IMG/VR virus record: IMGVR_UViG_3300037419_001472
Span: 1 to 64,000 of that record
Direction: 5' to 3' (one strand)
DNA from: a virus
DNA: 64,000 nucleotides
Positions 9 through 2,548 of the stretch are shown here, piece by piece (positions within the stretch are counted from its first letter, which is position 1; each line of letters opens with the position of its first letter). Under the pieces are notes generated by a model. It did not search any database. It saw only the letters and a program-made list of their open reading frames with translations, and was not told the DNA's origin. The position numbers and the translations under genes are program-made.

Positions 9-236
9 TCAGTGGTTGCCGTCGCTGGCATCCTCGCCGGTCGGCTGATCAGCCAGGTTGACGAAGCTGAATGCCTGGAGTCTCGCCCCCTGGATCCATC
101 GGAGGGCAGCCCGGCCGAGCCGGGCCCGCCGAATGTCGAGCCCGGCCGTCATGGCCTCGGCCTTGCGCTGCAGCCGCTCGCGGTTGGCGAGGGCGGCTGC
201 GGCCTGCTCTGGGGTCATCTCGGGCCGTCCCATCAC
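9..236 (-). CDS. hypothetical protein (75 aa)
   Basis: Open frame with GC-rich third positions. ATGATG start overlaps the TGA stop of the upstream NADAR gene. No recognisable motif. Confidence 0.45.
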   Translation of the reverse strand: MMGRPEMTPEQAAAALANRERLQRKAEAMTAGLDIRRARLGRAALRWIQGARLQAFSFVNLADQPTGEDASDGNH

Positions 237-787
237 GAAGACTCCTGGTCAATCAGGATCAGGGATTCGGCCAGGGATGCCAGGGTCTGCCCCCGATCCA
301 GGCCGATACGGATCGCGCCGCGGACCTCCATCAGGATCAGGCCGAGCCAGTTGGTCCCGACCCCATTGACCTCGCCCCATCGGCGATTGACCTCGTTGTC
401 CACGGTCGCGGCCTCGACGATCCTCGCGTCGCCGGTCAGCAGCAGGGTCGCGGCGAGGTCGGCATGCTGGAGAAACTTAGCCTCGACCACGCGCCGCATC
501 CGATCCCGGCGATTCTTCGACCACCCCGGCGTGATATCCCAGTAGTTCAGGCCGTGGGCTGAGGCCGCAAGGAGCGACGGAGAGGGGGCTAGCATGAGCC
601 ACTCCGCGACCTCCGTCTTCCTCGCCTTTCCGAACTGGTAAGCATGTTCCGCCGTTGGGTATTCCCGGCCCTCGAAGGTCATGGGCCGGCGATAGAGGTT
701 GCTGAATTCGCCCCACGGTCCGTTGGCCCGGTAGAACCGGATGACCTCGGGCGTGGCCGGCGGGCAGGTCGTGTCGATACTCATCAT
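233..787 (-). CDS. NADAR (YbiA/DUF1768) family protein
   Basis: 184 aa. Sequence FYRANGPWGEFSNLY...FEGREYPTAEHAYQFGK...WG..NWLG matches the NADAR/DUF1768 signature as I remember it. Confidence 0.75.
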   Translation of the reverse strand: MMSIDTTCPPATPEVIRFYRANGPWGEFSNLYRRPMTFEGREYPTAEHAYQFGKARKTEVAEWLMLAPSPSLLAASAHGLNYWDITPGWSKNRRDRMRRVVEAKFLQHADLAATLLLTGDARIVEAATVDNEVNRRWGEVNGVGTNWLGLILMEVRGAIRIGLDRGQTLASLAESLILIDQESS

Positions 788-796
788 GAGGTCCTT

Positions 797-1399
797 TCAG
801 AACATCGCGGGTTCGCGTTCGATCTCATCCATCCAACGGAGGCCATTCGCCAGATACTTATCCGGGAACATGCTGAAACCGGTCCCATCCACGGAATCAC
901 ATCCGATCTCGAAAGCATGACGGAGCCGCTTGCGAGAGTTAACCCGGCCCATGTGGACCCATTTCCGCCGCATGCCGGCTTCCCTTGCCAGGTCCTCAGC
1001 CATCTCCGAGAGTTTCCACGTCGTCGAACCTCCGATGAACAGGGCGTCGAAGGCATCCCAGGGAAGGTCCAGATCCTCGGCCCCGTCCTGGCCAACCAGG
1101 GCGATTGGTAGACCACGGCCAGCGATCTCCCAGTGCCAGTCCCAGAATCGACCCAGAGTAGCCCTCGCATCGCCGACGACATCCGGCGCAGCCACAAAGA
1201 GGCACCCAGGCATGCCATCAATCCGGGTGAGCAACCGGCGGAATCGCAGTTCGTCCCAGGCCAGGAAGGCATCATTGTCAGCGGCCCATTGCTGGCCTGA
1301 GATGATCGCATTCCCGGATCGCGGCGAGACAAGCCGGCCGATCCTCGGGTCATAGCCAAACCGGTTCAAGGCTGGACCGCCGTTGATGAGGATCATCAT
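797..1399 (-). CDS. minimal TGT-fold protein, candidate DpdA-like DNA-guanine transglycosylase
   Basis: 200 aa. Ordered motifs WAADNDAF / APDVVGD / FIGGS / VHMGRVNS / GCDSVDGTG parallel the TGT motifs DSGG, GG, LMGVG and GxDMFD. No Zn-site cysteines. Its stop is 7 nt from the NADAR start, and its start overlaps the QueE stop. Confidence 0.55.
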   Translation of the reverse strand: MMILINGGPALNRFGYDPRIGRLVSPRSGNAIISGQQWAADNDAFLAWDELRFRRLLTRIDGMPGCLFVAAPDVVGDARATLGRFWDWHWEIAGRGLPIALVGQDGAEDLDLPWDAFDALFIGGSTTWKLSEMAEDLAREAGMRRKWVHMGRVNSRKRLRHAFEIGCDSVDGTGFSMFPDKYLANGLRWMDEIEREPAMF

Positions 1400-2034
1400 G
1401 GGATCAGCCAGTACTTGTGGGCCTGGGTCGTCATCCGCCAGATTGGATTCTCAAGGCAATAGGATAGGGCTGCTTCCATGTTGGCTTCATGATCCGGCCC
1501 ATCCATCGGCGAGAGCAGGAAATGGCGGAAGTCCAGCCCGAGGAACGTGGCCGGGTCAATCCCCGGTTGAGGATAGACCAGCTTCAGTTCGTGGCCCGAG
1601 CGCTGGTGGAGTGGGGCACCAGCCTTGGGGCTGACCGTCAGCCAGTCAATCCCCATCGGGGCCTTGATCGTCCCGTTCGTCTCGACGGCGACATCCAGGC
1701 CGCGATGATGGACAGCCGAGATGAGATCGTCATCGAGTTGCAATAGCGGCTCGCCACCCGTGAAGACGGCCAACCCCCAGACCTCGGGATCTGGCCATGC
1801 GTCGGCGATCGCATCAGCAAGTTGCTCAACCTCGAATTGGCCGCCCCCAGGTCCATTCGTTCCGACGAAATCCGTGTCACACCAGGCTGAGCATGATCCG
1901 CCGCGGCCCCTGTCGATCTCTCGGCCGGTCCAGAGGTTGCAGCCTGCGAAACGGCAGAATACGGCAGGACGTCCGACTTGGATGCCCTCACCCTGGAGCG
2001 TGTAGAACAGCGATTTGACCATATATCGCTTCAT
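1396..2034 (-). CDS. queE: 7-carboxy-7-deazaguanine synthase QueE (radical SAM)
   Basis: LFYTLQGEG...VFCRFAGCNLW...CDTDF...VFTGGEPLL...VETNG are classic QueE motifs. Start set at ATG 2034 (GAGG plus 5 nt); the track ORF starts at an upstream TTG (2052). Confidence 0.9.
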   Translation of the reverse strand: MKRYMVKSLFYTLQGEGIQVGRPAVFCRFAGCNLWTGREIDRGRGGSCSAWCDTDFVGTNGPGGGQFEVEQLADAIADAWPDPEVWGLAVFTGGEPLLQLDDDLISAVHHRGLDVAVETNGTIKAPMGIDWLTVSPKAGAPLHQRSGHELKLVYPQPGIDPATFLGLDFRHFLLSPMDGPDHEANMEAALSYCLENPIWRMTTQAHKYWLIP

Positions 2035-2044
2035 CACGACCTCA

Positions 2045-2548
2045 TTAGACAAGGGGTCGCGGGGTCAGTCGGGACGGCAGGAACAGCGGATGCCCGGGTT
2101 GGCCGGTCGCGGTCGAGGCGATGCAGTAGGGCGGGATGTTGGCCTCGCGGAGCAGCTTGAGCACGGCCTTGTCTCGGCCCTGGATCTTGCCGGGGATTCC
2201 CCAGGCCAGCACCGTCATCGCGCACTCACGCGCGGCTGAGAGGATGTGTTGGTCATTCTCCGGGCCGACCGGGTCCGGGGCCGAGCGCAACGCGTCGGGG
2301 TCGGTCGATCGCCAGGCGAAAAGGTTCGTTACGATCAGCCCGCCGTAGCCCCAACTCTCGGCGAAGCCCATGCAGCGCCGGACCGTCGGGTCGTCGTGGC
2401 ACCCATCCGCTTTTGAAGGGTTGAGCATCAGGAAATGGACCTTGGAGCCATCACTCCAGGAGCGGACGAGCCGGTAGCGATAGAGGCCGTCCGCGCTGAT
2501 GACTGCGGAGCGGACGCCATTGATTTCAAAGAGCGTGCTCTGGACCAT
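2045..2548 (-). CDS. DUF1643 family protein
   Basis: MLNPSKADGCHDDPTVRRCMGFAESWGYGGLIVTNLFAWRSTDP...AWG matches the DUF1643 pattern as remembered. Internal ATG chosen because the upstream gene ends at 2610. Confidence 0.65.
   Translation of the reverse strand: MVQSTLFEINGVRSAVISADGLYRYRLVRSWSDGSKVHFLMLNPSKADGCHDDPTVRRCMGFAESWGYGGLIVTNLFAWRSTDPDALRSAPDPVGPENDQHILSAARECAMTVLAWGIPGKIQGRDKAVLKLLREANIPPYCIASTATGQPGHPLFLPSRLTPRPLV

Follow-up and report, generated by a model that had tools for sequence, protein, structure and literature searches.

Can a phage that carries a single gene of the preQ0 pathway replace guanine in its DNA with a 7-deazaguanine, and which protein would carry out the exchange? 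7-Deazaguanine DNA modification is a major anti-restriction strategy of phages. The question is raised by IMG/VR virus record IMGVR_UViG_3300037419_001472, of which positions 1 to 64,000 (64,000 nucleotides, hereafter the window; all coordinates are window positions) were analysed. Near the left end of the window, a gene for QueE, the synthase of 7-carboxy-7-deazaguanine (CDG), adjoins a gene for a 200-amino acid (aa) protein, here termed T200, that resembles tRNA-guanine transglycosylases (TGTs) and their DNA-modifying relatives (DpdA). The most probable answer, at roughly 0.6, is that QueE and T200 constitute a two-gene DNA 7-deazaguanine module that shields phage DNA from host nucleases, with preQ0 or a derivative as the base most likely installed. 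An initial annotation of the same sequence had proposed a DNA 7-deazaguanine module in which these two genes are coupled to flanking DUF1643 and NADAR genes. The module is still the best reading, given a genuine QueE, a DpdA-like T200 and recurrent preQ0-gene neighbours, whereas the coupling of all four genes has to be given up.

On its sequence, the QueE gene is a bona fide 7-carboxy-7-deazaguanine synthase. Its product scores 296.4 bits against the equivalog model TIGR04508 (queE_Cx14CxxC; cutoff 240) and aligns over its full length with QueE of Burkholderia multivorans (PDB 4NJG; 7.8e-70, residues 9–218 to 22–230). The motifs on which the enzyme had initially been recognized (FCRFAGCNLW, LQGEG and TGGEPLL) are present in the translation. 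The loop that binds the iron–sulfur cluster (residues ~37–57) contains three cysteines with the spacing CX15CX3C (CNLWTGREIDRGRGGSCSAWC, CSAWC), compared with the family-defining CX14CX2C. A metagenome-assembled genome of Gemmataceae (L175), in which a fragment of QueE neighbours a T200 homologue, shows a similar variant, CSGWC, in that fragment. Gemmataceae also provide the best cellular matches to T200 (52%), and together these two observations give a weak hint of a planctomycete host.

T200 belongs to a large family that curated resources do not capture. Neither the single sequence nor the family profile has a match in Pfam, NCBIfam, PADLOC or the PDB sequences (phmmer/hmmsearch), and the corresponding PHROG, phrog_15826, is of unknown function there. 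The family comprises 5,417 clusters at 90% identity (E ≤ 1e-3) and 3,437 representatives at 50% identity, distributed among phages and prophages of Actinomycetota, Planctomycetota, Bacillota and Proteobacteria. SEA-PHAGES annotators label the actinophage homologues 'DpdA-like tRNA-guanine transglycosylase'; a literature search found no paper characterising the family, and none of the T200-bearing phages looked up there is listed in the supplement of PMC6884629. Fusion partners in longer T200-containing proteins, namely ISL3 transposase fragments and a weak SprT match, are uninformative. A protein of Erythrobacter phage ZS04 that GenBank labels 'DarB-like antirestriction protein' was considered as a further fusion, but is a plain 213-aa T200 homologue.

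The sequence motifs and predicted fold of T200 agree with a TGT-like enzyme of reduced size. Its translation contains the strings AADNDAF, FIGGS, VHMGRVNS and GCDSVDGTG in which the initial annotation had seen TGT-like motifs, and the family alignment shows that D41, N42, D73, Q104, G124, K129, H149, G151, R152, N154 and G172 are invariant family-wide, so these motifs are not chance strings. An AlphaFold2 model (predicted local distance difference test score, pLDDT, 89.9) forms an eight-strand alpha/beta barrel. Its Foldseek matches are TIM barrels with template modelling (TM) scores of ~0.5–0.6, among them the Zymomonas mobilis TGT, an archaeal TGT, Salmonella DpdA (7UI4) and several phage 'queuine tRNA-ribosyltransferases'. 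As originally noticed, the protein is, at 200 aa, far shorter than tRNA TGTs and lacks their zinc cysteines: the motif CxCxxC...H is absent, C66 is the sole nearly invariant cysteine of the family, and the window protein additionally has C167. The alignment of the actinophage DpdA family likewise contains no invariant cysteine.

Profile–profile comparison places T200 with phage DpdA. Alignment by hhalign of the T200 family with the actinophage DpdA family (seed Sonali gp87) gave a probability of 95.2–95.7% and E-values of 2.6e-8 to 1e-8 over ~150 columns, compared with 0.08 for a reversed-template control. The actinophage family in turn leads to CAjan DpdA (tblastn, 4e-9), deletion of whose gene abolishes dPreQ0 (PMC6884629); its best PDB sequence match is bacterial DpdA, with the same motifs aligned at a non-significant E-value (0.47). 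More directly, a DpdA hidden Markov model (HMM) weakly matches two T200 members, and a DpdA1-type HMM matches the ZS04 homologue (L260, 4935–5576) at 5e-5. Comparisons of the T200 profile with single sequences (CAjan DpdA and phiST DpdA3) by hhalign are insensitive, and the top 150 matches of a representative-library search with T200 were all close family members, so that this search provided no bridge to TGT. The hhalign columns pair D41, D73 and D171 of T200 with three residues that do not vary in the phage DpdA family, D37, D73 and D174. The counterparts in Salmonella DpdA are D95 for D41 (acid/base), F99 for F45 (base stacking), D130 for D73 (base recognition), G206-G207 for G123-G124 (Gly-Gly loop) and D256 for D171 (nucleophile). 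In the T200 family, conservation at each of these positions is complete or reaches at least 90%, and all of the Salmonella residues are essential by mutagenesis or structure (PMC10164549). Together with the predicted barrel, this supports the TGT-like nature first assigned to the protein, with T200 as a remote, minimal member of the TGT/DpdA superfamily that keeps the catalytic residues.

Strong evidence by association links T200 to the preQ0 pathway. A set of 249 T200 loci from viral, metagenomic and genomic collections was reduced to 193 lineages at 90% identity, and HMMs for QueE, QueC, QueD, FolE, DpdA, DUF1643 and NADAR were run against their flanks; these targeted models and public gene calls were used instead of an unbiased clustering of flanking open reading frames (ORFs), in which spurious high-GC ORFs and nearly identical prophages of Solirubrobacterales predominated. 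A preQ0-pathway gene (QueE, QueC, QueD or FolE) lies in the flanks of 13 of the 193 lineages, always on the same strand as T200, and abuts T200 (within 4 nt or overlapping) in 10 of the 13. The pairings are varied: T200 occurs with QueE alone (the window, L065, L091, L235 and L175), QueC alone (L066/L157 and L077), QueD alone (L163 and L194), QueE and QueD (L093) or QueE and FolE (L127). At least two types of QueE are represented among the partners, with 27–54% identity to the window QueE, indicating that T200–QueE pairings arose independently. No canonical DpdA was detected by the HMM scan in the flanks of the lineages that bear a pathway gene.

The remaining pathway genes are absent from the entire phage genome. 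FolE, QueD and QueC had been suspected to lie left of position 1; this is ruled out by two public contigs with an identical T200 (L004 and L257), which run past both ends of the window and overlap each other and the window, closing the genome at ~78 kb as a circular or circularly permuted molecule (the closing query was ORF 59786–60481; ORF 62114–63787 is a shadow ORF). Public Pfam calls and relaxed HMM searches of the whole ~78-kb genome revealed no FolE, QueD, QueC or second DpdA/TGT-like gene, and the phage must therefore draw CPH4 from its host. What was observed comprises the identities of the genes, the remote homology of T200 with its conserved residues, the genomic association and the lack of other pathway genes; a mechanism can be proposed on this basis. 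Host FolE and QueD would make CPH4, which phage QueE would turn into CDG and host QueC, probably, into preQ0. T200, as a stripped-down (beta/alpha)8 relative of DpdA, would cut guanine out of phage DNA by way of a covalent Asp-ribosyl intermediate, following the double displacement chemistry of TGT and DpdA with D171 as nucleophile and D41 as acid/base. The base installed would most likely be preQ0 or a close derivative, with CDG as the alternative, and the modified DNA would escape restriction. Three points of this scheme are deduced: that DNA rather than tRNA is the target, which base is inserted, and that the modification is protective.

Several findings weigh against a two-gene DNA-modifying module. 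Homology between T200 and DpdA is detectable at the profile–profile level alone, the fold matches fail to set TGT apart from other TIM barrels at their TM scores, and none of 53 family members matches Pfam TGT (PF01702) or DUF6610 (PF20314, DpdA4) at E ≤ 5. Gln104 of T200 replaces the base-recognition histidine of DpdA, and the spacing of the QueE cluster loop is unusual. Approximately 93% of T200 lineages are solo, including cluster-P mycobacteriophages and Arthrobacter phage Aoka. The solo group thus extends to phages of Mycobacterium smegmatis, a host devoid of the preQ0 pathway (PMC6884629), so that the substrate of the family may be a different one. However, canonical DpdAs also occur solo in Mycobacterium phages (PMC6884629), so that solo occurrence does not discriminate. 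Finally, a T200 homologue, a canonical DpdA and the pathway occur together in Sonali, in the Seuratviruses SHIN8 and phiG7 and in Vibrio phage R29Z, indicating that T200 is no simple substitute for DpdA.

The location of T200 is similar in Queuovirinae-like phages. The homologue lies upstream of the DNA polymerase in both Escherichia phage SHIN8 (L259, 5863–6521), where it follows a polymerase processivity-factor gene, and R29Z (L261, 4716–5348), ~1.2 kb from the canonical DpdA and the FolE/QueD/QueC cluster. The homologue of SHIN8 and phiG7 is split into two ORFs, which may reflect a frameshift or a pseudogene.

The four minus-strand genes of the initial annotation are all present and tightly packed (Table 1). 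QueE and T200 share a 4-nt ATGA overlap, suggesting translational coupling, and T200 and NADAR are separated by 9 nt. The DUF1643/QueE junction is an 8-nt overlap if QueE starts at the TTG at 2052 and a 10-nt gap if it starts at the ATG at 2034; the latter is the likelier start, with GAGG 5 nt upstream. The leftward gene string is longer than these four genes. The small ORF downstream overlaps the NADAR stop by 4 nt, and upstream the string continues across a 61-nt gap with the helix-turn-helix (HTH) protein gene, an N6/N4 methylase and an SNF2 helicase. The string has a sole promoter-like site, and no terminator-like sites were found between the four genes, which are part of this longer string and not a self-contained operon.

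Table 1. Features of the window discussed in the text
Feature	Position	Strand	Family match or remark
Small ORF, 75 aa	9–236	minus	no family match; 74-aa gene in public contigs
NADAR, YbiA subfamily, 184 aa	233–787	minus	PF08719 (3e-23, 83 bits); TIGR02464 (80.3 bits, cutoff 73.7)
T200, 200 aa, candidate DNA guanine/7-deazaguanine transglycosylase	797–1399	minus	profile–profile match to phage DpdA
QueE, 212 aa from ATG	1396–2034	minus	TIGR04508; longest ORF reaches TTG at 2052
DUF1643 protein, 167 aa	2045–2548	minus	PF07799 (6e-46); phrog_3230 (function unknown there)
HTH-domain protein, 428 aa	2610–3896	minus	PF01381 (9e-7); phrog_2328
Promoter-like site	7075–7048		
tRNA-Asp call, 96 nt	7475–7570	minus	ARAGORN; anticodon ATC
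ORF upstream of and overlapping the TAGT ORF	23856–24638		no Pfam match
TET-associated glycosyltransferase (TAGT) domain ORF	24238–25488	plus	PF20691 (1.2e-36); phrog_842
ThyX-like protein	61502–62410		

The two outer genes appear to serve other functions. The NADAR protein matches Escherichia coli YbiA (2B3W) at 7.8e-19, and the glutamate in its last strand (IVEAA opposite LVEHT) is the residue by which the YbiA subfamily is recognized (PMC11125620). Every NADAR subfamily that has been tested, YbiA and phage gp30.3 among them, strips ADP-ribose from guanine in DNA (PMC11125620), and orphan NADARs of phages neutralise DarTG1 (PMC11257639). By analogy, the window protein is a probable guanine de-ADP-ribosylase or N-glycosidase with a counter-defence role, and most likely acts as a separate enzyme that would remove ADP-ribose from guanines modified by DarT1-type toxins. 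For DUF1643, the initial annotation had suggested a comparison with folds like that of uracil-DNA glycosylase (UDG). The DUF1643 motifs LNPS and GHPLY presumably resemble UDG motifs A and B. The fold may yet be UDG-like, but this was not confirmed: a Foldseek search of the PDB with the AlphaFold2 model (pLDDT 92.6) returned nothing at E < 1e-3, the best matches being weak alpha/beta hydrolases (E ≥ 4.8e-3), with the UDG 5gn2 ranked only 21st (E 0.027, TM 0.41), and none of 58 DUF1643 family members matches Pfam UDG. DUF1643 would be an unrelated accessory gene.

Nor does the distribution of these genes bear out the suggestion that their coupling to QueE and T200 marks an undescribed variant. 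NADAR adjoins T200 in the present lineage only (15 contigs, T200 100% identical), and DUF1643 is near T200 in just three lineages, namely the present one, L223 (3.8 kb away) and the P0011 contig (~1 kb). In the closest relatives of T200 (75%, 73% and 66% identity), neither QueE nor NADAR lies beside it. The base composition of the genes also differs, with GC contents of 0.60–0.61 for QueE and T200 and 0.65–0.66 for DUF1643 and NADAR; at third codon positions (GC3) the values are 0.71 and 0.83–0.84, respectively. The lower common GC3 of QueE and T200 is consistent with a separately acquired unit and, with the ATGA overlap, suggests that the two travel together. DUF1643 and NADAR are neighbours of the module and not fixed partners. 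On the P0011 contig (JGI 3300041965; T200 73% identical), DUF1643 is located between a CsrA-like gene and a gene for an Acb2/Tad1-hairpin protein, a family of anti-CBASS/Thoeris sponges, suggesting that DUF1643 dwells in anti-defence islands.

The rest of the genome encodes various further functions. Within the window, genes for DnaB, DUF5131, a Mu-type portal and a terminase accompany that of the ThyX-like protein. Beyond the window lie those for ParA/ParB, a PhoH-like ATPase, a second N6/N4 methylase and a ribonucleotide reductase of 1,703 aa that is broken up by intein/HNH insertions. The TAGT ORF hints at cytosine hypermodification by the same phage; no TET/JBP protein was identified. The tRNA-Asp call is unusual in length and anticodon, which could reflect an insertion or a false call.

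Other readings of the locus account for part of these observations. CDG itself could be the installed base: host FolE and QueD would provide CPH4, phage QueE would convert it to CDG, and T200 would produce dCDG-DNA without QueC. The complete genome indeed has QueE and no QueC; dCDG is natural in viral DNA, and DpdA3 has been proposed to insert CDG (PMC10516641). T200 also has invariant residues near the Gly-Gly loop and the HxG motif (K129, R152, N154 and R158) that are absent from the DpdA1-type alignment and could bind a carboxylate. This route is nevertheless unlikely, as the pairings with QueC alone (L066 and L077) and QueD alone (L163 and L194) fit better with a common end product such as preQ0, and QueC is encoded by most bacteria. 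Equally doubtful is a broader version in which T200 represents a new, large class (at least 3,400 clusters at 50% identity) of minimal, zinc-less DNA transglycosylases that here follow a two-gene dCDG-DNA route. Jointly with this, and as tentatively, the class would be distinct from bacterial DpdA (bDpdA) and, as far as tested, from DpdA1–4, with a substrate logic of its own; in solo or pathway-less phages it would swap guanine for a non-preQ0 base or act as an enzyme of second specificity beside DpdA. T200 could also act on something other than 7-deazaguanines, as a DNA glycosylase or base-exchange enzyme with the TGT fold that replaces, for example, guanines damaged by defence systems; the adjacency to QueE would then be incidental. 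This reading would account for the 93% of lineages that are solo, including those in phages of hosts without preQ0 synthesis (PMC6884629), for the four isolates with T200 alongside a canonical DpdA, for the glutamine in place of histidine at the base-recognition position, for the anti-defence-type genes (Acb2/Tad1 and methylases) around T200 in relatives, and for the adjoining NADAR, a guanine-ADP-ribose hydrolase. Yet chance hardly explains why, in 10 independent lineages, T200 directly adjoins one or other of four different preQ0-pathway genes on the same strand, and the solo canonical DpdAs of Mycobacterium phages (PMC6884629) deprive the solo state of discriminating power, leaving this explanation rather improbable.

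The tight packing of the locus, with overlapping stops and starts, would also suit one integrated four-gene pathway, in which DUF1643 assists in a glycosylase-like role and NADAR serves the deazaguanine route as a clean-up N-glycosidase; YbiA-type NADARs cleave N-glycosidic bonds of GTP-derived riboflavin intermediates (TIGR02464). This is very unlikely, since the arrangement is limited to a single lineage and missing from relatives at 66–75% T200 identity, the GC3 of the inner pair differs from that of the outer genes, and DUF1643 has no significant match to a UDG fold. It is most unlikely of all that the module acts on tRNA, boosting or altering queuosine-type modification of host or phage tRNAs and thereby tuning translation. 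The TGT superfamily is ancestrally tRNA-acting and the phage has a tRNA-Asp-like gene, but the zinc subdomain and the C-terminal portions of tRNA TGTs are missing from T200, the closest relatives that can be detected for it are the DNA-acting DpdAs of phages, and the genomic context, with methylases and an SNF2 helicase, is one of DNA modification and replication. A QueE–T200 module that installs preQ0 or a derivative in DNA is the preferred reading.

If such a module operates, its implications extend beyond this phage. A phage could lean on a single biosynthetic gene, QueE, and on its host for the remainder of the pathway. An active T200 would be the smallest known scaffold for DNA base exchange, would explain modification in phages carrying one pathway gene, and would leave the retention of two transglycosylases by some phages to be explained. 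With thousands of clusters and no curated model, the family would be missed by standard annotation; the catalogue of bDpdA and DpdA1–4 had been regarded as covering all modified phages.

Among known systems, T200 most resembles the phage DpdAs of the CAjan, 9g and Sonali gp87 type (DpdA1-like). It shares with them the TIM-barrel core, the three catalytic or recognition aspartates and the motif order D-x-G/D-A-F, (P/L)DV(V/I)GD, IGG, H-x-G and SVD, and is likewise found in phages in association with FolE, QueD, QueE and QueC. It differs in being ~100 aa shorter, without a C-terminal extension, and similar at the profile–profile level only, in having glutamine for the conserved histidine and the four extra invariant residues, and in being usually solo and often beside a canonical DpdA. 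Bacterial DpdA of the Dpd restriction-modification system (Salmonella Montevideo, 7UI4) has the counterparts of its Asp95/Asp256, Asp130 and Gly-Gly residues kept in T200 (PMC10164549), but this 436-aa protein carries four insertions together with a structural zinc site and requires the ATPase DpdB; T200 has none of the insertions and no zinc site, and no adjacent gene was recognized as a DpdB-like partner. As to DpdA2 (Vibrio phage nt-1 type), a tblastn search of 50,697 phage records with T200 at E ≤ 5 matched one Vibrio phage, vB_VpaS_R29Z, and none named nt-1. DpdA3 (Cellulophaga phage phiST CGPG_00065 and Campylobacter phages) is, like T200, small, divergent, TGT-like and missed by general models, and its motif D-N-G-A resembles DNDA of T200. 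It occurs with CDG-stage pathways without QueC and is proposed to insert CDG or derivatives (PMC10516641). Unlike T200, which matches no Pfam model, DpdA3 reaches an HHpred probability of 98.8% to Pfam TGT; no BLAST similarity connects the two, and hhalign against the single phiST sequence, an insensitive template, gave E 0.14. The window NADAR, for its part, is comparable to orphan phage and YbiA NADARs: its gene stands alone in an early or accessory region of the phage, and the protein has the YbiA fold with the YbiA-type glutamate, in contrast to the T4 gp30.3-type phage NADAR with histidine. Set beside these systems, T200 is a distinct, minimal and uncharacterised DpdA-like subfamily in an unusual QueE-only arrangement, whose kinship to DpdA has been noticed by annotators and not studied.

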